DNA of 37,779 bases from positions 1 to 37,779 of the IMG/VR virus record IMGVR_UViG_3300042009_000020; one strand, given 5' to 3'. The DNA comes from a virus. Lineage: Duplodnaviria; Heunggongvirae; Uroviricota; Caudoviricetes. A program made the position numbers and the translations under genes. Positions 5,461 through 35,931 of the stretch are shown here, piece after piece; the first letter of the stretch is position 1, and every line of letters starts with the position of its first letter. A model generated the notes under the pieces. The model made no database searches. It was given only the letters and a program-made list of their open reading frames with translations, and was not told the origin of the DNA.

Positions 5461-5479
5461 GATAATGATAGCCATTCGT
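5461..5479. promoter_or_regulatory. Fur-box-like site
   Basis: GATAATGATAGCCATTCGT, 14/19 to GATAATGATAATCATTATC. Confidence 0.35.
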
Positions 5480-5687: not shown

Positions 5688-5706
5688 TTGAATGAGAATC
5701 ATTAAC
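5688..5706. promoter_or_regulatory. Fur-box-like site
   Basis: TTGAATGAGAATCATTAAC, 14/19, core AATGAGAATCATT. Confidence 0.4.
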
Positions 5707-16163: not shown

Positions 16164-16369
16164 AGTCCAAACTCCTCTTTCAATTCATCAACAAGATCGT
16201 CAGCATGACGATTACAAAGTGCATCAAACAGCTTGGTGATTAACAAGTCTGCCTTCTCAGCAATGTTTGCTGCCTCATCAAGAGCGTCAAAGAAACCCTC
16301 CTGATAGATACCTTCACGGAAAACACTCACTTGAATGTTTTCAATCTTTTCAGCAAACTTCATATTCAA
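16160..16369 (-). CDS. hypothetical protein
   Basis: GGAGG RBS. Confidence 0.65.
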   Translation of the reverse strand: MNMKFAEKIENIQVSVFREGIYQEGFFDALDEAANIAEKADLLITKLFDALCNRHADDLVDELKEEFGL

Positions 16370-16556
16370 CCTCCATCTTATTTACTTCAATGAACTCAGG
16401 ATGATCATCAAGCGTGAAGTTAGTCCACGTGTAACGCCAGTATCCATCATGTAGTTCGTAATCTTCGTAGTGTACACCACCAATGTGACTGCGTGCAACT
16501 GGTTTCTTGCCTACTGTGGCATCTAGTTTCGATTGCCAAGTAACGATAGCACCCAT
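16350..16556 (-). CDS. hypothetical protein
   Basis: TAATG coupling. Confidence 0.55.
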   Translation of the reverse strand: MGAIVTWQSKLDATVGKKPVARSHIGGVHYEDYELHDGYWRYTWTNFTLDDHPEFIEVNKMEVEYEVC

Positions 16557-16822
16557 TAAACTTTCTCCTCAACCAACTCGGTCCAACAAGCACCACCATT
16601 GTGATGATAAGTCTCGAAGTGAATAAAACCAGCATCATCAACCTTAACATTATTAATGGAACCCATGTCACCGCGTTTAACTTCCCAATGCGGAATGTAC
16701 AATTCATCATGGATTCGAACAAGTCCCATATCTTCAGCGTCATCAAACGCCTCATCATCAAACAACTCAGTGTCGATACCAGATGGTTCTAGCACACCTT
16801 TGTTGTACTCATAATCACTCAT
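16556..16822 (-). CDS. hypothetical acidic protein
   Basis: ATGA coupling. Confidence 0.6.
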   Translation of the reverse strand: MSDYEYNKGVLEPSGIDTELFDDEAFDDAEDMGLVRIHDELYIPHWEVKRGDMGSINNVKVDDAGFIHFETYHHNGGACWTELVEEKV

Positions 16823-16992
16823 GCATCACGTTCCGAATCGTACTGGAACTCAGCAATATTAATAAGCTCAGCGATTGCATCATCAACCTCGTAACCGGTA
16901 AACCCACCAAGTACTGCTGATACACGTGCTGCCTTCAGATGTACAAGCATGTCAGCCAATGCCATTTCACGAATCTCTTTTTGCGAAATCAT
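16819..16992 (-). CDS. hypothetical protein (57 aa)
   Basis: MISQKEIREMALAD...; GAGGAG RBS; absent from track. Confidence 0.55.
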   Translation of the reverse strand: MISQKEIREMALADMLVHLKAARVSAVLGGFTGYEVDDAIAELINIAEFQYDSERDA

Positions 16993-17150
16993 TTAATCAT
17001 CTCCTCAACTGTTTTTTGCCATGATTGGCCTGAAATGTACTTCTTCATTACATCTTTAACTTCTTTGTCGCTAAGTGGTCGTCCAACAACTTCTTTAACA
17101 TTTGTATTATACCACATCCACCCACCGATTGTATCTTTTGTTACCTTCAT
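16989..17150 (-). CDS. hypothetical protein (53 aa)
   Basis: MKVTKDTIGGWMWY...; coupled at both ends; absent from track. Confidence 0.55.
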   Translation of the reverse strand: MKVTKDTIGGWMWYNTNVKEVVGRPLSDKEVKDVMKKYISGQSWQKTVEEMIK

Positions 17151-17584
17151 TAGAACCCACCAAGTAGTTGAATCTGCTTACTGTATTTGTTGATACGCTT
17201 TGCACTGCAAGCATTGATGCTGTTCATCAAGTTGGCAGCAGTATCACACAGTTTTACTTTAAGAGCAAGCTCATCCATGCGAATATTGTTTATATACTGA
17301 TCGTATCCTACGAATTCATCTTTCGTAAGAAGGCTAATCGCATTAATAACTTGATGTGAAAACCCTAGACTGAACAACTCGTCTGTTGTGGTATTCGTGT
17401 CTTCAAGAATATCATGAAGTAGACAAGTAGCCCTTAGTTCATCGATACAATCAGTACCACAACCATATGTTCGAATTGCAATGTTTTCTACTTGGTAGAG
17501 GTGGTACATATATGGATGCTCACCGTACACTTGACCATCATGTTTCTTGAGTGCCAATTCACGGGCTTTTGTTACTTGAGTCAT
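17150..17584 (-). CDS. HD-domain hydrolase (Mesh1/small alarmone hydrolase-like)
   Basis: A...H.GQ, PY..H, LLHDILED, VKLCD..AN; start moved to MTQVTK (17584, AAGGAG RBS). Confidence 0.8.
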   Translation of the reverse strand: MTQVTKARELALKKHDGQVYGEHPYMYHLYQVENIAIRTYGCGTDCIDELRATCLLHDILEDTNTTTDELFSLGFSHQVINAISLLTKDEFVGYDQYINNIRMDELALKVKLCDTAANLMNSINACSAKRINKYSKQIQLLGGF

Positions 17585-17609
17585 CTCGTATCTCCTTGTT
17601 TGTCCGACC

Positions 17610-17637
17610 ATTCTACCAGAATGAATACCGGTGTCAA
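17610..17637 (-). promoter_or_regulatory. sigma70-type promoter
   Basis: Minus strand TTGACA-N16-TAGAAT. Confidence 0.75.
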
Positions 17638-17655
17638 CCATTTATTTTAGGTACG

Positions 17656-17676
17656 AAAAAGCCCTCCGAAGAGGGC
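17656..17676 (-). terminator. intrinsic terminator
   Basis: Minus strand GCCCTC-TTCG-GAGGGC-TTTTT. Confidence 0.8.
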
Positions 17677-17682
17677 CATTCA

Positions 17683-19491
17683 TTACACCATCAGTTTTGC
17701 ACGAATCTCATCAAGAGATGTTTGGTTGTAGAAACTACCATCCTTGAATCGAATCTTCAACTCGTTAGAGCTATGTTCCTCAATTTCACGAGTTACATTA
17801 TCAGTCAGAACATAATCACCAAGATCATTCTTACCAACGTACAGCAGCCCTTTTGCTGATTTCTTCTTACTATCGGTCTTTGGATCTTTGAAGATGGCAA
17901 TGTCCTTACCATTTACCTTGGTGTAAGTTGCCTTAACAGCGAATCCGAATGTATCACGTGTCACACACTGATAAGTGTAAGAACCCACACCAAACATTGC
18001 ATTACCAGAAGCATAACCCTTGTCAAACAGGCGCTCAAGGATTGTTTGGCAACGATTGGTAGTAATCGAGTCACCATAGATCAGACCAATGTGATCGTCC
18101 AGCAGTTTGTGACCTGTAGAAGTCTCAGTGTATCCGAAGATTTCCATCAATACTTCTACGGCACCCTTCTGTTCTACACTCAAATCAATTTCACGTGCGT
18201 ACCAACCATCAAGGTCTTTACTGTTGTAATATCGACTATGGTAACACTCACCCTCAATCACAACAATAACACCATCAGAGGTTCTACCGTAAAAGGATAA
18301 TTCATCACCACCTTCAACTTTATTAGCATATTCAGAACCAATATCTACAATAGAATCAGTAGCATCATCAGACTGTTCATCCAATTCGACAAAGGTGTGA
18401 GGAATATCATGAATCTTAACACCACACAGAACTTCTACTGGATCACCTGAATCTGGACGAATTACCAATCGTCCGGGAGTTACACCATTTGATTGACGAC
18501 GCATAATTACATCTTTCAGATATGGTAGACCACGAGAAATCAAACCGTAGAAGTCAAAGCTATCAGCGACATACGACAGGATACCAACCGGGAACTTCAG
18601 CATCAGTTCATACATGAACATGATTTCAGCAATCAGTCGATCATCTTCTTTTGCGTTAGACATCTTGTTGAAAATGTCGAATTGTTCATCATTTGAAAAC
18701 TCGTAAACACCATCGTACAACTCTTGCTCAATTCGCAGAATGTTACTTGTGCTTACAGCGTGCTCAGTTGCTGGAACAGAACAAGCAACAAAGTCACCAG
18801 CACGGTAATACTGTTGAGCGTACAACACAGTACCAAGTGAGTCACTACCCAAGAAACTACCAACGTGACCGAAACCACTACGTGCAGCGTCTTCAAAACC
18901 AGACATACCACGGTCAGCAAAACAGTGAGACTGAATGTTAACAACTTCCAAAGGAGTACCTGTACGAATCGCATAGTCCGTCAACATTGCACGGTATTCA
19001 GCAGCGATAGTTGCTGTAGTCGAAGGTTTCCAAGTGAGGTTACTGATTACAGTTTCGAGGAAGTTAACCAACCAGAAAGCGTGGTCAACAGTGTTGCGAA
19101 TTGTCAACACTGGAATTCCCATATTTACTTTGGTGCCTTCTTTCAGGGTACGGATTTCCAGCGGCAAGTAACCAAGATCGTGCAGTTTAGCAAGACGGTC
19201 AGTTGTAATAACTGGGTAACCGAAGTATGAATCACACAGAAGTTTGAAACGAGCGAGTGCAATACCCTTGTCCATCTCGAAGAAATCATCCCACATTTCA
19301 ACGATTTCAGCAATAGCGCCTTGGTGACCGATAACAACCAACTTACCATCGTAATACTTGGTGCACGAGCGACGATAGATACTATCTGAACGTGGTGTCA
19401 GGTTGGAAGATACTACTTCCGTACCTTCAGCATACATATCTGGGTGACCAAGTTTGTATCCATCTGACAGAAAAGCTGCGAACAATTTCAT
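17683..19491 (-). CDS. nicotinamide phosphoribosyltransferase-like protein (probable NARP1 Namat)
   Basis: SDGYKLGH, ADRG, SVPATEH, RPDSG, GLIYGDSI, KDPKTD..KKSAKG. Confidence 0.9.
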   Translation of the reverse strand: MKLFAAFLSDGYKLGHPDMYAEGTEVVSSNLTPRSDSIYRRSCTKYYDGKLVVIGHQGAIAEIVEMWDDFFEMDKGIALARFKLLCDSYFGYPVITTDRLAKLHDLGYLPLEIRTLKEGTKVNMGIPVLTIRNTVDHAFWLVNFLETVISNLTWKPSTTATIAAEYRAMLTDYAIRTGTPLEVVNIQSHCFADRGMSGFEDAARSGFGHVGSFLGSDSLGTVLYAQQYYRAGDFVACSVPATEHAVSTSNILRIEQELYDGVYEFSNDEQFDIFNKMSNAKEDDRLIAEIMFMYELMLKFPVGILSYVADSFDFYGLISRGLPYLKDVIMRRQSNGVTPGRLVIRPDSGDPVEVLCGVKIHDIPHTFVELDEQSDDATDSIVDIGSEYANKVEGGDELSFYGRTSDGVIVVIEGECYHSRYYNSKDLDGWYAREIDLSVEQKGAVEVLMEIFGYTETSTGHKLLDDHIGLIYGDSITTNRCQTILERLFDKGYASGNAMFGVGSYTYQCVTRDTFGFAVKATYTKVNGKDIAIFKDPKTDSKKKSAKGLLYVGKNDLGDYVLTDNVTREIEEHSSNELKIRFKDGSFYNQTSLDEIRAKLMV

Positions 19492-24343: not shown

Positions 24344-24372
24344 TTGACAGTAATGAGGTGTTTCTATATAAT
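24344..24372 (+). promoter_or_regulatory. consensus sigma70 promoter of tRNA cluster
   Basis: TTGACA-N17-TATAAT. Confidence 0.88.
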
Positions 24373-25232: not shown

Positions 25233-25353
25233 ATTTAACAACACAGACTGTTGATTCGAAAAGCCGCATATTATGCGATCAGGTTAAAATGTGTTGTGTA
25301 AAAACGCGCTGCATCCTCTGGTATCGACTAGTTTGGTATTACGTTACAGCCAT

Positions 25354-26473: not shown

Positions 26474-26497
26474 AGCCCGCCTCGTGCGGGCTTTTCT
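26474..26497 (+). terminator. intrinsic terminator
   Basis: AGCCCGC-CTCGT-GCGGGCT-TTTCT. Confidence 0.8.
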
Positions 26498-26525: not shown

Positions 26526-26554
26526 TTGACAAATTCACAACAAGACAGTAGAAT
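26526..26554 (+). promoter_or_regulatory. sigma70 promoter upstream of terS
   Basis: TTGACA-N17-TAGAAT. Confidence 0.8.
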
Positions 26555-26586: not shown

Positions 26587-27018
26587 ATGTCCAACGAAGA
26601 TATGGGTGTTAGCCCACTTCATGAACGTGACACTCGATTCCAACCCGGTGTATCTGGTAATCCTGCTGGACGACCAAAGGGAAGTAAAAGTGGTCCACGC
26701 TCTAAAATGCGTGCACAGCTAGTTAAACTTTGTGAACTACAACCTGACGCACTTGAGATTCTCCGGATCAGTATGACTGGTAAGAACTCAGCAGGTGAAG
26801 CAGTAAATGTACCAGCCAAAGATAAAGTTGAAATGGCTAAGTTCATTGTCAAATCTATCGAATCATTGAACAACACTTGTCTTCGTGAAGAGATGGCAAT
26901 CCTTGGAGTTCGTGATAAAGGTAATGCGGAAGGTGCAGCACAATTGGAAGAGAATCAGAAAGAAGCTGAAGCGACCAGTACAGGTTCATTCAGTCTCGAT
27001 ATGGAAACCCAACATTAA
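26587..27018 (+). CDS. terS: terminase small subunit (DUF5681-type N-terminus)
   Basis: RFQPGVSGNPAGRPKGSK motif; upstream of terL. Confidence 0.75.
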   Translation: MSNEDMGVSPLHERDTRFQPGVSGNPAGRPKGSKSGPRSKMRAQLVKLCELQPDALEILRISMTGKNSAGEAVNVPAKDKVEMAKFIVKSIESLNNTCLREEMAILGVRDKGNAEGAAQLEENQKEAEATSTGSFSLDMETQH

Positions 27019-27027
27019 GGAGTAACT

Positions 27028-27468
27028 ATGAATAAGTATCACCTGCACGTAACCAGTTCCGACTCACTAGGTCTGAATCTGATTGAGAACATTATTGAAA
27101 TGGCAAACTTGGGTGCCAAGCTGAAACCCGGAACTCTCCCAAGTATGCGATTCCCACACAGTTGTTCGCTGGTTCTGGAAGCTGAAGTTCCACCAACACC
27201 AAGTGCCACGCTTCGTGTATTTGAATATGACACATGTAAAGAGGTATTCGCTGCCTTCATTGAACCAGTTGCTGCAACCTTCTCACTGGATACTGAAGAT
27301 GTTGTTGATGCTGTAGACAAGAGTACCAACCAAGGTACACCGTGGACTAAAGAACAACTAGATAACATGGATTGGGAAACAGAGTTTAAAGAAGTTTGTA
27401 AGTCTGTTGAAATCACTGGTCGTTCCCGAGATAAGATGACAAAAGAATATCTTGCAAAATTCGCATAA
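27028..27468 (+). CDS. hypothetical protein between terS and terL
   Basis: AAGGAG RBS; small helical C-terminal domain. Confidence 0.7.
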   Translation: MNKYHLHVTSSDSLGLNLIENIIEMANLGAKLKPGTLPSMRFPHSCSLVLEAEVPPTPSATLRVFEYDTCKEVFAAFIEPVAATFSLDTEDVVDAVDKSTNQGTPWTKEQLDNMDWETEFKEVCKSVEITGRSRDKMTKEYLAKFA

Positions 27469-27483
27469 TCATTACTATACGTA

Positions 27484-27512
27484 TTGACAAAATAATGATT
27501 ATCATTTAGAAT
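27484..27512 (+). promoter_or_regulatory. terL promoter containing a Fur box
   Basis: TTGACA 27484-27489, N17, TAGAAT 27507-27512; spacer holds AATGAT-T-ATCATT (15/19 to Fur consensus on minus strand). Confidence 0.75.
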
Positions 27513-27522
27513 AAGCACTTAT

Positions 27523-29055
27523 ATGGAGAACACCATGAACGAAGTTCAAATGGTGCGTCCTCAATCCCCCTTCCAAGAGAAGTACCTGAAGTCGAATGCA
27601 AAGATTCTGGTAGTTGGTGGTGCAGCCGGTAGCTCTAAGAGTTATGTCGGACTGATGCGACACCTACGTTGGGCGCATGATCCAAAGTATAATGGTTACT
27701 GTATTCGACAACACAGTAATGACTTGATGAAAGCTGGTGGACTCTTCCAAGAAGCAGTCGGGCTTTATTCTCAGGTTTATCCTGACATCAAAGTAAAGAT
27801 TAAAGATCAGATGATTGTTTTCCCAAGTGGGTCATCTGTTTCCTTTGCTCACTATGAAAACGATGCTGCTGGTCGTAAGTATCAAGGTCTTCAACTTTCT
27901 AACGTATTCTATGACGAAGCAACTCACGCTGATGAACAACACATCTGGTGGTTGTTTTCACGTCTTCGTACATCAGCCAGAATGGAACCAAGTATTTGGT
28001 TGTCATGTAACCCTGACCCTGACAGTTATCTTTTCGATTGGGTTAAGTGGTGGTTGTATCCAGAAGGTCATCCTCAGTATGGTATTGCTGATCCGGCAAA
28101 GAACGGTATCACAAGATTTGTACTGCGCATTGGTGGTGAGATGTGCTGGGGTGAATCTCCAGAAGAACTCATTGAGAAGTACGGAAAGAAAGAACTTCCG
28201 TTTGACCACGTAGACCAAGTTAAACCAATTCCATTCCAAGTATTGCTTGGTACTCTTGTTGATAACCCAACGTTGATGAAGCTCCAACCTGACTATAAAG
28301 GTAAGTTGGAAGCGATGCCTGATGTTGAGATGCGTCGTCTGCTCCTCGGAGACTGGACGGCTCGTGAAGAGGGTTCTACATACTTCCAACGATCTTGGTG
28401 TGGTGAAGAGGCTCTTGATGAGCCATCTGCTAGTGAGATTGTACGATCTGTTAGAGCATATGACTTCGCTGGTACATTGAAGTCTTCTGGCAACACAAGT
28501 CCTGACTATACAGCCTGTGTGAAGATGAGCAAACTCAAGAATGGAGATTACTTCGTTCATGATGTTCGTCGTGATCGTATTCTTTACGGTGACTGGGAAA
28601 AGTTCATCATTGACAACGCAGCACAAGATGGAAAGAACTGTGAGATTATTATCCCACTCGATCCCGGTGCTTCTGCCAAAGTTGCTACAAGCCTGCTCAC
28701 ACGCTCGCTGAGTGAAAAAGGATATAGAGTCAGAACAATGAAAGCAACTCAGTCTAAGCTGGATCGCTTCCGTCCTTTCTCTTCTTTGGCTATGAACGGT
28801 CATGTCCAGTTCCTCAAGGGTTGTGCAACCGACTTGGAAAACAAGATTGAATGTAACAACAGCTTCCTGTACCGAGAGCTTGAAGGCTTTAACGGTAAGA
28901 AGCGTAGCGGTGAATCAGGCCACGACGATATGGTTGATGCCATTAGTGATGCCACATCGATTCTCGCTCAGCGTGTCAACGTACCCAATATGGCACAAGC
29001 CTTGGGCAGTGTCAACCTTTTAAATAACACACCCTTCGATAAAGGAGTTGCCTAA
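27523..29055 (+). CDS. terL: terminase large subunit
   Basis: GGAAGSSKS Walker A variant, FYDEATH Walker B, SCNP, RAYDFA nuclease Asp, HDDMVDA. Confidence 0.93.
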   Translation: MENTMNEVQMVRPQSPFQEKYLKSNAKILVVGGAAGSSKSYVGLMRHLRWAHDPKYNGYCIRQHSNDLMKAGGLFQEAVGLYSQVYPDIKVKIKDQMIVFPSGSSVSFAHYENDAAGRKYQGLQLSNVFYDEATHADEQHIWWLFSRLRTSARMEPSIWLSCNPDPDSYLFDWVKWWLYPEGHPQYGIADPAKNGITRFVLRIGGEMCWGESPEELIEKYGKKELPFDHVDQVKPIPFQVLLGTLVDNPTLMKLQPDYKGKLEAMPDVEMRRLLLGDWTAREEGSTYFQRSWCGEEALDEPSASEIVRSVRAYDFAGTLKSSGNTSPDYTACVKMSKLKNGDYFVHDVRRDRILYGDWEKFIIDNAAQDGKNCEIIIPLDPGASAKVATSLLTRSLSEKGYRVRTMKATQSKLDRFRPFSSLAMNGHVQFLKGCATDLENKIECNNSFLYRELEGFNGKKRSGESGHDDMVDAISDATSILAQRVNVPNMAQALGSVNLLNNTPFDKGVA

Positions 29056-30578
29056 TGGCAGATAAAGCCGAAAAAACAGTCTCCTTGACACAGGGTGATT
29101 CCAAAGCTCCACCAATTGTCTATGGCGAGACTGGTTACACTGGTCTTGTTACATTGGGTGGTCAGGTCTGGGATGATTGTCAGCATGAACTTCGCTGGCC
29201 CTTCGCTTACAAGACATTCAAGAAGATGGCAACTGATGGTTCTGTTGGTCCTGCCCTTGAGTTTGTCGAAGGTAAAGTAGCTGAAGCCACTTGGAAAGTA
29301 AAGATTCCAAAGGGTGCCCCGAAAGAACGAGAAGCTACTCTCAAAGCACAACAGCAGTATCTCACCGAAGTAATGGACGATATGCGTCACAGTTGGACTA
29401 CTGGAATTAAAAACGCTGGTACATTCAACCGTTATGGATTCAGTGTCCTTGAAATGGTGTTTCGCTTTCGTAACTATAAATACGGTAGTAAGTTCAATGA
29501 TGGACTGGTGGGGATTGAAGCCCTTTCACCAAGGAGTCAAGGAACTATTGTCCAGTGGTATTGGAAAGACAAAGGTCGTGAACTAGATGGTTTTGATCAA
29601 CGTATTATTATCCCAAGTGAAAACAGCCTGATTAGTCATGATGGTTGGGAAGTTATGCGAACTAGTGTCACACAAGAGACTGGTGTCAAATACATTCCAA
29701 TGAAGAAATGTTTACACTTCCGACACAACCCTCAAAATGATAGTCCTTCTGGTACGTCTCCTTTGATTGCTGCATGGCAACCGTGGAAGATGAAACAGGC
29801 TTACCAAGAGTCTGAAGCAATTGGTGTAGCACAAGACAACAACGCCTTTAAGATTCTGTTTCTTCCTCCTGAATACCTTGTAGAAGATCGTGACGAAGAC
29901 CGCGAAGCATCTTTCAACATGTATACCCGAATGATGGAACGAGCACATCAGGCAAAACAAAGTGGGTTCATCCTACCGATGTTGCTTGATAATGATGGTA
30001 ACAAGATGTTCGACTTTGAGATTAAAAACATCTCCGGTCAGAAGTCTTATGATGTCAATGCAATTATCAACCGGTACGTGCGAGAGATTCAAGTTGCTCT
30101 GTTCGCTGACGTATTGTCCCTTGGTAGTGGTTCTGGTGGTAGTTACTCTCTGGCTGAGTCGAAAGTAAGTATTATCGACATGGCAGTAAAGAGTCGTTTG
30201 AATGAAATCAAAGACCAGCTTAATCATAAGCTTGTTAAGACATTGTTTGAACAAAACTCATGGCCTACCGATGTAATGCCTTACATTGATTTCGATTTGC
30301 CTAACAGTGAGTCATTGGAGAGTGTTGGTAAATATCTACAACAAGCAGCCGCTGTTGGACTTATTCCGCTAGTTCCTGAAGTTGTTAACTTTGTTCTTGC
30401 TCGCGTTGGTATTGATTACAGAGTTCCTGATGACATTGATCCTGAGAAACTTAGAGAAATGATGACCAACTTTGTCTCCGAAGCTGGAGGTGGAATGGAG
30501 TCAGGACTTAATGGGAGCAACGGAAAAGGTACAGGTGCTAATGGTGATGCAAACACAGCAAACAAAGGGAGCAATTAA
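29055..30578 (+). CDS. portal protein
   Basis: 507 aa directly after terL; GETGYTG N-terminus and GGSYSLAE motif. Confidence 0.85.
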   Translation: MADKAEKTVSLTQGDSKAPPIVYGETGYTGLVTLGGQVWDDCQHELRWPFAYKTFKKMATDGSVGPALEFVEGKVAEATWKVKIPKGAPKEREATLKAQQQYLTEVMDDMRHSWTTGIKNAGTFNRYGFSVLEMVFRFRNYKYGSKFNDGLVGIEALSPRSQGTIVQWYWKDKGRELDGFDQRIIIPSENSLISHDGWEVMRTSVTQETGVKYIPMKKCLHFRHNPQNDSPSGTSPLIAAWQPWKMKQAYQESEAIGVAQDNNAFKILFLPPEYLVEDRDEDREASFNMYTRMMERAHQAKQSGFILPMLLDNDGNKMFDFEIKNISGQKSYDVNAIINRYVREIQVALFADVLSLGSGSGGSYSLAESKVSIIDMAVKSRLNEIKDQLNHKLVKTLFEQNSWPTDVMPYIDFDLPNSESLESVGKYLQQAAAVGLIPLVPEVVNFVLARVGIDYRVPDDIDPEKLREMMTNFVSEAGGGMESGLNGSNGKGTGANGDANTANKGSN

Positions 30579-31933
30579 TGGCACATTCACTTATGCGTAT
30601 CAAGGGTTCGCTTGTAAACACTCCACATCTGATTGAGCAAAATGCTTTCAACAGTATTATGGAATATGTTAACCAGCGAATTGAGGGGAACGTTGATATC
30701 ACTCCTCAATCTAATAGTGACGATGGTAATTACAGTCACCGTTATGTATCAGATACAGCAACCGGTATTATGCACATCAATGGTCCACTTACTTACCGCA
30801 CAAGTGGTTGGGAAGCGTTCTGTGGTGGTACATCTTACGAGATGCTGAAAGGACAAATGGAATACTTCGTTGAATCTGGAGCAAAGACTGTCGCAATGAT
30901 GGTTGACTCTGGTGGTGGTGAAGCTCATGGGATGATGGACAGTGCAAACTATATTCGTCAACTTGCTGATGACAACGGTATCAAGATCATTGCTTACGTA
31001 GATGGTATGTCGGCTTCTGCTGCATACGGAATCTCCTGTATCGCTGATGAGATTGTGATGTCGTTTGACAGTCAAGTGGGAAGTATTGGTGTACTGATTC
31101 AGTTGATGAATAACAGTAAGCAACTTGAGAAAGCTGGTGTAGAACGAACCTTCGTTACTGCTGGTAAGGACAAAGTTCCTTTTGCTGCTGATGGTTCGTT
31201 CACTGAAGGATTCATTTCTCGTCTGCAAACACAAGTTGACAAACTGTATGAAGGATTCACAACTCACGTAGCAACTCATCGTTCTCTTGATGTCAAAGCC
31301 GTACAGAACACCGAAGCAAATGTGTTTATGTCTGAAGAGGCAATCTCACTTGGTTTGGCTGATAAGGTTATGACAGTTGAAGAGTTTTACAATTATCTGG
31401 CAGACGTTGCTCAGAACAATATCGAGGGTACTGGTATGGGCATGAAAGACGCCTTCAAATTTATGAATAAAGAGGATAAAGCTGAAATGGCTAAGCTCGA
31501 AGAACTGCAAACCCTGCTTCAAGCAGAACAAACCGCCCGTGGTGTAGCTGACGCTGCTCTGGCTGCTCATGTAACTCAACTGGGTGAAGCACAGGACGCA
31601 ATTGCTGCTCTGACTACTCAACTGGCTGAGTTCAAAGAAGCTCAGGAACTAGCCGTTAAGGCTGCTGCTGATGCAGTTGTAGCTGGTCGTAAAGCTGCTC
31701 TGTCTGAAGTTGTCCCTGAAGCTGAACTGGAAACTTACATGACCAATATGTCCAGTCTGGATGAAGGTGCTTTCACCTTTATGGTCGGTACACTGAAAGC
31801 TGTTAAAGATACACGTGCTGAGAGTTTCAAAGCAGTTGGAGAGGAAGGCGCTGAAGATCAAGACGCTCCTGTCAACACTGCTGATGCAATTCGAATCGCG
31901 GGTGTTGAAGCTGCACGCGCACGTCGCGGTTAA
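30578..31933 (+). CDS. prohead maturation protease (S49/SppA type) with C-terminal scaffold-like coil
   Basis: DSGGGE, SASAAY, GSIGV, TAGKDK, GLADKV; Ala/Glu-rich helical tail. Confidence 0.88.
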   Translation: MAHSLMRIKGSLVNTPHLIEQNAFNSIMEYVNQRIEGNVDITPQSNSDDGNYSHRYVSDTATGIMHINGPLTYRTSGWEAFCGGTSYEMLKGQMEYFVESGAKTVAMMVDSGGGEAHGMMDSANYIRQLADDNGIKIIAYVDGMSASAAYGISCIADEIVMSFDSQVGSIGVLIQLMNNSKQLEKAGVERTFVTAGKDKVPFAADGSFTEGFISRLQTQVDKLYEGFTTHVATHRSLDVKAVQNTEANVFMSEEAISLGLADKVMTVEEFYNYLADVAQNNIEGTGMGMKDAFKFMNKEDKAEMAKLEELQTLLQAEQTARGVADAALAAHVTQLGEAQDAIAALTTQLAEFKEAQELAVKAAADAVVAGRKAALSEVVPEAELETYMTNMSSLDEGAFTFMVGTLKAVKDTRAESFKAVGEEGAEDQDAPVNTADAIRIAGVEAARARRG

Positions 31934-31960: not shown

Positions 31961-32404
31961 ATGGCTTTCACTGAACTGAACTTCCTGAAATATTCTTCGG
32001 ACTTGGTTATCGACCACGCCGACTTCCACTTCAGTAATGAAAATGCAAACATCACTCCGGCTGGTGTTATTAAACTGGGCACCGTTGTTGTCCGTCCAAA
32101 AGATTCTGCATCAACAGTAGCTTGGTCTGTTGTTGATGCTGCCGCTGATGCAGTTGAAACCAATGAATTCGCAGTTGTCTGGGGTGATCACAACTCGTTC
32201 GCTTACGACTTCACGCCTAAAACCATTGCTGCTGGTAAGTGGAACTCTGTTGTAATTGTTCGTCAAGCCGCATTCAAAGAGTTCTACATCAAAGAGAACT
32301 ACGAAACTCTGCTGGGTGCCGCTCCTTACGCTCTGATGAAGCAGCTGATGGCAAACCAAGGTCTGCTGGTACTGCAAGACGTATCCAAATACAAAGCTGT
32401 TTAA
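31961..32404 (+). CDS. head decoration/auxiliary capsid protein
   Basis: Position between protease and capsid gene; 147 aa. Confidence 0.65.
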   Translation: MAFTELNFLKYSSDLVIDHADFHFSNENANITPAGVIKLGTVVVRPKDSASTVAWSVVDAAADAVETNEFAVVWGDHNSFAYDFTPKTIAAGKWNSVVIVRQAAFKEFYIKENYETLLGAAPYALMKQLMANQGLLVLQDVSKYKAV

Positions 32405-32458: not shown

Positions 32459-33553
32459 ATGTCTCTGATTATCGATAAGAATATTGATCGCCTGTCGCAA
32501 GGTAAATTTGTTGAACTGACCGACATTCTGGTTGAACTGCCTCGTAATATTTCAATCATCGACCATCTTGGTCTGTTTGAAGAAGTCTTCGTTACTCAGA
32601 AGAAAATCGAAATTCAACGTACTCAGTACAGCAACCACCTGATCAAAGATAAGAACTGGGAAGCTAAAGCTGACACAATGGTTTCCAAGTCAAAGCGTGG
32701 CTTCATTCAGGCTCGTATCCCTAACTTCGAACTGCAAGATGCAATCAAGCCACAAGACATTGATGGTGTTGCACAAGTTAGTTCGATCCAAGAAGCTGCT
32801 CAACTGGCTACCGTGATGGATGTTCGTCTGGAGAAGCTGGCTTATCTGAATAACGCCTTTGACCTGACTGCTGACGTTGCTCGTATGCAACTGCTGATGA
32901 AAGGTACTGTATACGCACCAGAAGGTACGCTGGCAACTTCGTATGGTGATACAATCGACTTCTATGAAGAGATGGGTGTTACTCGTCAGACTCACGACCT
33001 GAAGCTGACTGGTTCGAATGATCCACGTATTACTTGCTCGCAACTGATCCGTAAGGTTCGTGAATCGCTGCGTCATGCCAACGGTGGTAATTACACTCAA
33101 CTGGTTCTGCTGTGCGGTACTGATTTCTTCGACGCTGTTTACACCAACCCATTCGTTACTGAAGCTATCAAATACTTCGCACAAGATTTGAATAAAATCC
33201 TGCTGAAGCCAGTTGACCAAGCTGCTGGTCTGGATGCTAACTTCCGTACCCTGTCCCTGTGGGGTCTGGTGTTTATCGACGCTGGTACTGGTGGTTACGA
33301 AGATGCCGATGGTGTGTTCCAACCGTGGATCGCCCCAACTAAGGCTGTTGCAATCCCAACTGGTGTTCGTGGTATGTTCAAGACTTACTTCGCCCCAGCT
33401 AACACCTTCAGCACTATCAACAAGAAAGCTGCTGGTCGTTACTACTTCGAACGTCTGAACGAGGAAGATGACCTGATCCAAATGAAGGTTGGTTCTAACT
33501 TCATGAACTCGACCATTTATCCGGGTGCGATCTTCGACGTAACCTTTAGCTAA
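32459..33553 (+). CDS. major capsid protein (lambda E-like)
   Basis: 364 aa, strong codon bias, followed by terminator; YFAPAN motif. Confidence 0.85.
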   Translation: MSLIIDKNIDRLSQGKFVELTDILVELPRNISIIDHLGLFEEVFVTQKKIEIQRTQYSNHLIKDKNWEAKADTMVSKSKRGFIQARIPNFELQDAIKPQDIDGVAQVSSIQEAAQLATVMDVRLEKLAYLNNAFDLTADVARMQLLMKGTVYAPEGTLATSYGDTIDFYEEMGVTRQTHDLKLTGSNDPRITCSQLIRKVRESLRHANGGNYTQLVLLCGTDFFDAVYTNPFVTEAIKYFAQDLNKILLKPVDQAAGLDANFRTLSLWGLVFIDAGTGGYEDADGVFQPWIAPTKAVAIPTGVRGMFKTYFAPANTFSTINKKAAGRYYFERLNEEDDLIQMKVGSNFMNSTIYPGAIFDVTFS

Positions 33554-33570
33554 GTTGTAATACCTCAATA

Positions 33571-33594
33571 GGGCTGGCGTCAAGCTGGCCCTTT
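33571..33594 (+). terminator. terminator after capsid gene
   Basis: GGGCTGGC-GTCAA-GCTGGCCC then TTTGTTGTTTT. Confidence 0.65.
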
Positions 33595-35277: not shown

Positions 35278-35931
35278 ATGGCTTTTCGTTTGCCTAACGG
35301 TTCTACATTCGACTTCGCTGCAACATACAGTACTGCTTTGACTGTAACTGCAATCTCTAACGCTGCTGTTCCAATTGTAACGGCTACCGGTCACACCTTT
35401 GTCGCTGGTGACATTGTTGTACTACAGTCGGGTTGGGTTAAAGCAACTTCCCGTGCTTTCCGTGTTATCGCCCCAATCGTCGCCAACACTAGTTTTGGTC
35501 TGGAAGGTCTGAACACCACATCTACTACTAAGTTCCCAGTTGGATCTAGTGCTGGTACTGTTAAGAAAGTGGCAACTTGGGTTAACATTCCTCAAATCAC
35601 TGGTATTACATCGTCTGGTGGTGAGCAACAATTCTACACCTTCGGTTTCTTGGAAGAAGAAGATGACCGTCAAGTTCCAACAACTAAGTCACCTTCACTG
35701 TTGACTCTGACTGTTGCAGATGATCCTGCTGCTCCTTATGTTGCTGTAGTTGAAGCTGCCGATGACCTCAATGAAGAGCGTGTACAACGTCTCAATTTGA
35801 TTAACGGTGCAACAATCTATTACAACAGTATTGCCTCGATCACCAGTACTCCGACAATGACTCGTAACCAACTGATGGAGCGTACTATTACGCTCGCTCA
35901 ACAAGGTCAAATTACACGTTATATCTCGTAA
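35278..35931 (+). CDS. major tail tube protein (siphovirus)
   Basis: MAFRLPNGST...SGW...W..I.QI....SSGGEQQF..F.FLE. Confidence 0.85.
   Translation: MAFRLPNGSTFDFAATYSTALTVTAISNAAVPIVTATGHTFVAGDIVVLQSGWVKATSRAFRVIAPIVANTSFGLEGLNTTSTTKFPVGSSAGTVKKVATWVNIPQITGITSSGGEQQFYTFGFLEEEDDRQVPTTKSPSLLTLTVADDPAAPYVAVVEAADDLNEERVQRLNLINGATIYYNSIASITSTPTMTRNQLMERTITLAQQGQITRYIS

Follow-up and report, generated by a model that had tools for sequence, protein, structure and literature searches.

The window analysed here (37,779 nucleotides) covers the initial 37.8 kb of a virus record of 107,314 bp (G000) that has direct terminal repeats and a G+C content of 42.7%. Relatives of the window were found by protein-based searches, and a megablast search of the phage collection returned one distant nucleotide match only. 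The large terminase subunit (TerL) encoded in the window is 71 to 78% identical to those of the Pseudomonas phages phiPMW, a Plaisancevirus infecting P. putida, and vB_PpS_SYP (SYP), which infects P. plecoglossicida. Pseudomonas is therefore the host of the nearest cultured relatives, and we infer a Pseudomonas-like gammaproteobacterial host for the window phage. Four contigs (L004, L005, L006, and L008) encode TerL proteins with 94 to 95% identity to that of the window and form a shallow clade with it; in the terL promoter region and the flanking genes, relatives are 84 to 89% identical to the window at the nucleotide level. Genome-wide comparisons of sites and promoters were based on the three closest complete relatives of G000 (G001 to G003). 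No signs of lysogeny were found in the region examined, and the window phage is of the virulent type. A Fur-family search found no Fur homologue in its genome.

The locus comprises the terL promoter, the genes on either side of it, and the signals that delimit them, as follows:

26474-26492, plus strand: terminator-like hairpin closing the tRNA region, just before the upstream promoter
26526-26554, plus strand: upstream promoter TTGACA-N17-TAGAAT, of the same class as the terL promoter and with a spacer that is not Fur-like
26587-27018 and 27028-27468, plus strand: two small genes driven by the promoter at 26526
27465-27474, unstranded: ATAATCATTA, matching the right half of the Fur consensus over 10 nt and overlapping the stop codon at 27466-27468
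27484-27489, plus strand: -35 hexamer TTGACA of the terL promoter, conserved in at least 15 relatives
27490-27506, plus strand: spacer of 17 nt, read from the sequence
27491-27509, unstranded: Fur-box-like 19-mer (15/19 to the consensus), filling the spacer and the first 3 bases of the -10 hexamer
27494-27506, unstranded: perfect 6-1-6 dyad AATGAT-T-ATCATT within the spacer, core of the putative operator
27507-27512, plus strand: -10 hexamer TAGAAT, read from the sequence
27513-27534, plus strand: 5' leader, with the Shine-Dalgarno sequence GGAGA at 27525-27529
27535-29055, plus strand: terL, terminase large subunit (Pfam Terminase_6N/6C, PHROG 979)
29055-30578, plus strand: portal protein, from family searches
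30578-31933, plus strand: head maturation protease, from family searches
Between the protease and the major head protein: 147-aa protein
32459-33553, plus strand: major head protein, last gene before the terminator
33570-33592, plus strand: first strong terminator-like hairpin 3' of the promoter, where the transcription unit likely ends

The two hexamers of the terL promoter (27484-27512) are 17 bp apart and match the sigma-70 consensus at 11 of 12 positions. The promoter is situated 3' of the stop codon of the upstream gene and 22 nt before the start of terL, which is most likely the ATG at 27535, six bases after the GGAGA, rather than the ATG at 27523. The arrangement TTGACA-N17-TA..AT followed by a conserved CACTTATA motif precedes terL in at least 15 related phages, and an orthologous sigma-70 promoter before TerL was predicted in phiPMW (PMC5587285, Table 2, 45738-45767).

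The dyad occupies the classic position of a repressor site, between the -35 and -10 hexamers. The original prediction had located promoter and dyad correctly in every coordinate, and its count of 15 matches to the 19 positions of the Fur consensus, 15 of them contiguous, was borne out; against the reverse complement of the consensus, the 19-mer at 27491-27509 matches without interruption at 27492-27506. This 19-mer is the best Fur-consensus match across the whole 107,314-bp genome, and its dyad presents the ATGA...TCAT core (G7/C13) as an inverted repeat, which is a trait of Fur boxes. The site passes, at 15/19, the rule that a Fur box should match GATAATGATAATCATTATC at 14 or more of 19 positions (quoted in PMC6922518), a threshold that is used for Pseudomonas Fur boxes. 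Promoters of the same class at 24344 and 26526 are without a Fur-like motif, as had been claimed. A further half-site, ATAATCATTA, had been proposed upstream and is present at 27465-27474, but it is not kept in relatives. It was rejected as a second operator since the corresponding 19-mer matches the consensus at only 12/19, overlaps the stop codon, and in the closest relatives is either replaced or deleted.

The extent of the transcription unit differs from what was first described. The promoter is not dedicated to terL and instead heads an operon that runs to the terminator at 33570 and encodes TerL, the portal protein, the protease, the 147-aa protein, and the major head protein. The designation terS for the gene at 26587-27018 likewise finds no support in the family searches, which gave only a DUF5681 match at the N terminus and a weak hit to a PHROG of unknown function. 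Because no terminator was found between the two upstream small genes and terL, read-through into the operon is expected, and the operon probably also receives transcripts from the promoter at 26526. With such read-through, a repressor bound at 27491-27509 would tune expression and not switch it.

The leader and the beginning of terL vary among relatives. In most of them the terL leader opens with a conserved stem-loop, GGAGATAA-GAAG-TTATCTCC (e.g., L004:773-830 and L036:2957-3003), which has a Shine-Dalgarno-like 5' arm and displays compensatory changes in 3 of 8 pairs. The window leader (27513-27534) is without this stem-loop; between two direct repeats of GGAGA it lacks 22 nt, corresponding to the rest of the hairpin and one GGAGA repeat, so that the ribosome-binding site is now provided by the first arm of the hairpin. 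The SYP leader is also without the hairpin. At the N terminus of TerL (27535-27550), the window and L036 are five codons shorter than the closest relatives, L004-L008, which start ATGACCATGGATGTAAAACATG. The terL match spans 1.75 to 2.2 kb, versus 1.5 kb, in L010, L011, L015, L021, L022, L029-L031, L033, and L034, and these 250 to 700 extra bases in several relatives suggest an intron, an intein, or an inserted endonuclease. In vB_PsaM_M1 (L003:2112-3008), an annotated homing endonuclease is found just upstream, overlapping the terL start, at the place where the other phages have the promoter.

The resemblance to the Fur consensus was compared with chance rates from first-order Markov simulations of G000. 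Sites with at least 15/19 matches are expected 0.38 times per genome, and at least one occurs in 31% of the simulations; a 15/19 match was therefore rejected as proof on its own. These rates are consistent with a dyad that has no function and is a chance AT-rich palindrome carried in a conserved promoter and leader block. The shallowness of the clade fits such an origin, as does the conservation of a whole block of ∼50 to 70 nt, from the -35 hexamer into the leader and not in the spacer alone, and more distant relatives manage without the box. Against this stands the rarity of the core. The perfect form AATGAT-N-ATCATT is expected 0.02 times per genome and was observed 1, 1, 3, and 2 times in G000, G001, G002, and G003, respectively; for the looser form AATGA-N3-TCATT, the expectation is 0.26 and the counts are 2, 2, 4, and 2. 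Sites with at least 14/19 matches to the consensus number 7, 11, 13, and 10 in the same genomes, versus 3.5 expected at the composition of G000, and G002 contains three 16/19 sites versus 0.03 expected. All perfect and looser copies of the core in these four genomes fall in noncoding DNA, at three orthologous places (sites A, B, and C).

Spacer conservation was evaluated with an internal control formed by all sigma-70-like promoters of G000, the orthologues of which were located in G001 to G003. Among the ∼25 promoters with three orthologues, the terL promoter alone shows no spacer change in any of the three comparisons (0/0/0). The other ∼24 spacers have diverged, typically by 1 to 8 bases per comparison, with 8, 2, and 2 differences for the promoter at 26526. 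The terL spacer is also identical at 17 of 17 positions in L004, L005, L006, and L008. The DNA just 5' of the terL -35 hexamer is the most variable part of the alignment, with many substitutions and indels. A large recent recombination tract was rejected as the source of the invariant spacer, given that variable DNA abuts the -35 hexamer and that the flanking genes are 84 to 89% identical. AT-richness was rejected as the source of the Fur match, as the AT-rich orthologous spacers of 11 more distant relatives reach only 10 to 12 of 19 matches to the Fur consensus. The Fur-like sequence is confined to the one shallow clade. Within that clade the spacer is invariant, although in comparisons between clades no other part of the terL promoter is less conserved, a contrast that speaks against chance. 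Because the core is rare, recurs at three orthologous noncoding places, and lies in a conserved spacer, the dyad is not attributed to chance. It is a nonrandom element and the candidate operator of the terL promoter, and a functionless palindrome is an improbable explanation.

Site A is the terL promoter spacer and is present in all four genomes; it is the only one of the three sites that falls within a recognizable promoter. Orthologues of site B occur in G001-G004, and the terminal repeat of SYP contains another. Site C is situated in a second gene-free zone, which borders the early region; G002 and G003 have a perfect core there, and G000 (99731-99743) has a core with one mismatch. Of the six outer positions of the 19-mer, two agree with the Fur consensus at each of the three sites, which means that only the core is Fur-like at the phage sites. 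The core motif at two further conserved noncoding places makes it appear that the phage engages one factor at several sites. More generally, Fur-like boxes with 14 to 16 matches cluster in two gene-free zones flanking the early region, one of which is the terminal-repeat zone, as follows:

5461-5479 and 5688-5706, window: clustered Fur-like boxes
5688-5706, window, unstranded: the second of these boxes is site B (14/19), with its core AATGAGAATCATT at 5691, in the noncoding gene-free zone at the genome end
17496-17746, 18356, and 29088, G002: clustered Fur-like boxes
6060 and 16193-17505, G003: clustered Fur-like boxes

Separately, phiPMW (KU862660.1) presents a 17/19 match to the Fur consensus at 25315-25333, within the small gene gp79. 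Little weight was given to it as evidence, as it is intragenic and may be due to chance or be an intragenic site.

The same sequence is found in bacterial genomes. A scan with the exact 15-mer used one genome per prokaryote species, and among the matches listed, all 18 proteobacterial sites examined are intergenic and near a gene start. Ten genes located 3' of the bacterial 15-mer were compared with Pfam: two encode TonB-dependent receptors, one an Nramp transporter, one a ZIP transporter, and one an extracytoplasmic function (ECF) sigma factor. The remaining tested genes include a DAHP synthase and a class-III aminotransferase, which are kinds known in siderophore pathways. The site upstream of the ECF sigma gene is from Cupriavidus and agrees with the phage 19-mer at all 19 positions, and bacterial sites that share the core also vary in the outer part of the 19-mer. 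Across one order (taken as Pseudomonadales from the seed record's title), 151 genomes together contain 81 copies of the 13-mer core versus 16 of its reversed control, a 5-fold excess. From these sequence relationships, gammaproteobacterial Fur would be expected to bind the putative site at 27491-27509.

The density of the 13-mer is ∼0.15 per Mb in the 151 bacterial genomes versus ∼17 per Mb in the four phage genomes. Such a density, ∼100 times that of bacterial genomes, could be accounted for if Fur does bind and the sites serve chiefly as a Fur sink or as architectural anchors on replicating DNA, drawing Fur away from host promoters or organizing the genome ends, with a secondary effect at the head promoter. 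The several boxes per genome, their location in the terminal repeat and the gene-free zones flanking the early region, and the three 16/19 sites in G002 are compatible with this role. The exact placement of the terL site between -35 and -10, flush with the -10 hexamer, is needed for repression and not for a sink, and we regard a predominant sink function as very improbable.

Sister clades have another dyad, ATAGA-N5-TCTAT, at the corresponding register of the terL promoter, and it too is flush with the -10 hexamer. It is found in SYP and L009 and, in imperfect form, in L019 (G008). Its copies are located as follows:

77831-77845 and 83390-83404, SYP W01: ATAGA-N5-TCTAT
32100-32114 and 35428-35442, G008:C1: ATAGA-N5-TCTAT
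1642-1656, L009: ATAGA-N5-TCTAT

In G008 the motif recurs in the spacer of another promoter and beside the -35 hexamer of a third, and in SYP it occurs once more. With 2 to 3 copies per genome, it exceeds the ∼0.2 that we estimate from composition. A search of G000-G003 did not find it, and it was accordingly rejected as a second motif common to both clades. The presence of a second dyad in the same register indicates that an operator in the terL promoter spacer is, at the level of sequence, a putative family trait, with a sequence that differs between clades. This supports a true operator and also resembles phage repressor/operator pairs.

The resemblance brings forward the possibility that the dyad is the operator of a dimeric DNA-binding protein, encoded by the phage or by another host gene, that times the head operon, with a coincidental likeness to a Fur box. 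Different dyads at the same spot and in other promoters of sister clades are typical of phage regulators, and repetition at three orthologous noncoding sites is what an operator would present. In addition, conservation among the phage sites is limited to the 13-bp core and does not extend to the outer Fur positions. Other observations are harder to reconcile with a phage-encoded binder: the core holds exactly the Fur determinants ATGA...TCAT, and identical sequences front iron genes in bacteria. The protein search, which covered the Fur family only, was negative. Furthermore, SYP contains both motifs, with the Fur-like core in its terminal repeat and the ATAGA dyad in its promoters, which points to two different binders and not to one drifting specificity. 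On balance, a regulator other than Fur is the strongest competing explanation, less likely than Fur but by no means negligible.

Other signals are also carried by promoter spacers in these phages. About 15 promoters of the early region form a family, TTGAC(A/G)-N16-TAGAAT, with the conserved spacer motif ccTTCTCTAAA (members at 338, 2479, 3644, and 4289 of the window and in 100154-106982 of G000), which suggests that the spacers of the early promoters carry a second signal of a different kind. Beyond the window, a promoter of the same class as that of terL (G000:C1:67455-67483) has a perfect 5-3-5 palindrome, GGAAA-TGA-TTTCC, in its spacer, which is not kept in G001-G003.

The terL promoter can be compared with several known systems. 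Classical Fur-repressed sigma-70 promoters of gammaproteobacteria include iucA P1 and fepA-fes of E. coli and prrF and pvdS of Pseudomonas. Like these, the window promoter has an AT-rich inverted repeat of 19 bp, built around the ATGA...TCAT core, over the -35/-10 region, where the bound repressor of the classical promoters excludes RNA polymerase. Unlike theirs, its putative Fur box belongs to a virulent-type phage, precedes packaging and capsid genes and not iron uptake genes, and has outer triplets off the consensus. In the Stx1-converting lambdoid prophages, the stx1 promoter is regulated by iron and Fur. It shares with the window promoter a host Fur operator on a phage genome (putative in the window phage), and in stx1 the promoter is iron responsive. 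However, the temperate phages carry stx1 as cargo (a moron) with a promoter of its own, whereas the window promoter heads a morphogenesis operon. The closest orthologous case is that of phiPMW, which shares the -35 hexamer and the position before terL but has a spacer without a Fur-like sequence (10/19). The virulent Bacillus phage phi29 carries Spo0A boxes overlapping its own promoters, with binding and repression shown experimentally, whereas both are predicted for the window phage. In both cases a lytic phage has sites for a host global regulator (putative ones in the window phage) over its own promoters, linking its development to host physiology, although regulator, signal, and host differ.

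Among the explanations considered, the one we favor is that the dyad is an operator for host Fur-Fe(II) that tunes the head and packaging operon, to which we assign a slightly less than even chance. Fur binding, repression, and an iron response at the terL promoter are what this operator would predict. In the iron-replete cell, Fur-Fe(II) would occupy the 19-bp box (about -31 to -13), keep RNA polymerase away, and so reduce initiation. Low iron, or unavailability of Fur for any other reason, would release the terL promoter. Read-through from the promoter at 26526 would have the consequence that Fur tunes the output of head and packaging genes rather than gating it.

A broader proposal is possible but doubtful, namely, that a lytic clade has wired host Fur into its own program. 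The core would then be deployed at the genome-end repeat zone, at the border of the early region, and in the operator for head and packaging genes, and the output of capsid and terminase would be set by host iron or by the titration of Fur by replicating phage DNA, with the operator being swapped in sister clades. The copy-number timer suggested in the original prediction would gain a little plausibility from the presence of several boxes in each genome.

In bacteria, Fur operators at iron genes are textbook material. To our knowledge, the main known case on phage DNA is that of stx1, a cargo gene of temperate phages, and no description of a Fur operator in the morphogenesis promoter of a virulent phage was found in the full-text literature searched. 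If the Fur operator proposed here is genuine, a lytic phage would read, or be timed by, the iron state of its host. The consequences would extend to phage yield where environments are poor in iron, to phage therapy in iron-limited hosts, and to temporal control in phages that use only the host sigma-70 polymerase. The sequence features of the terL promoter suggest that in this clade the production of virions may be tied to the iron status of the host.
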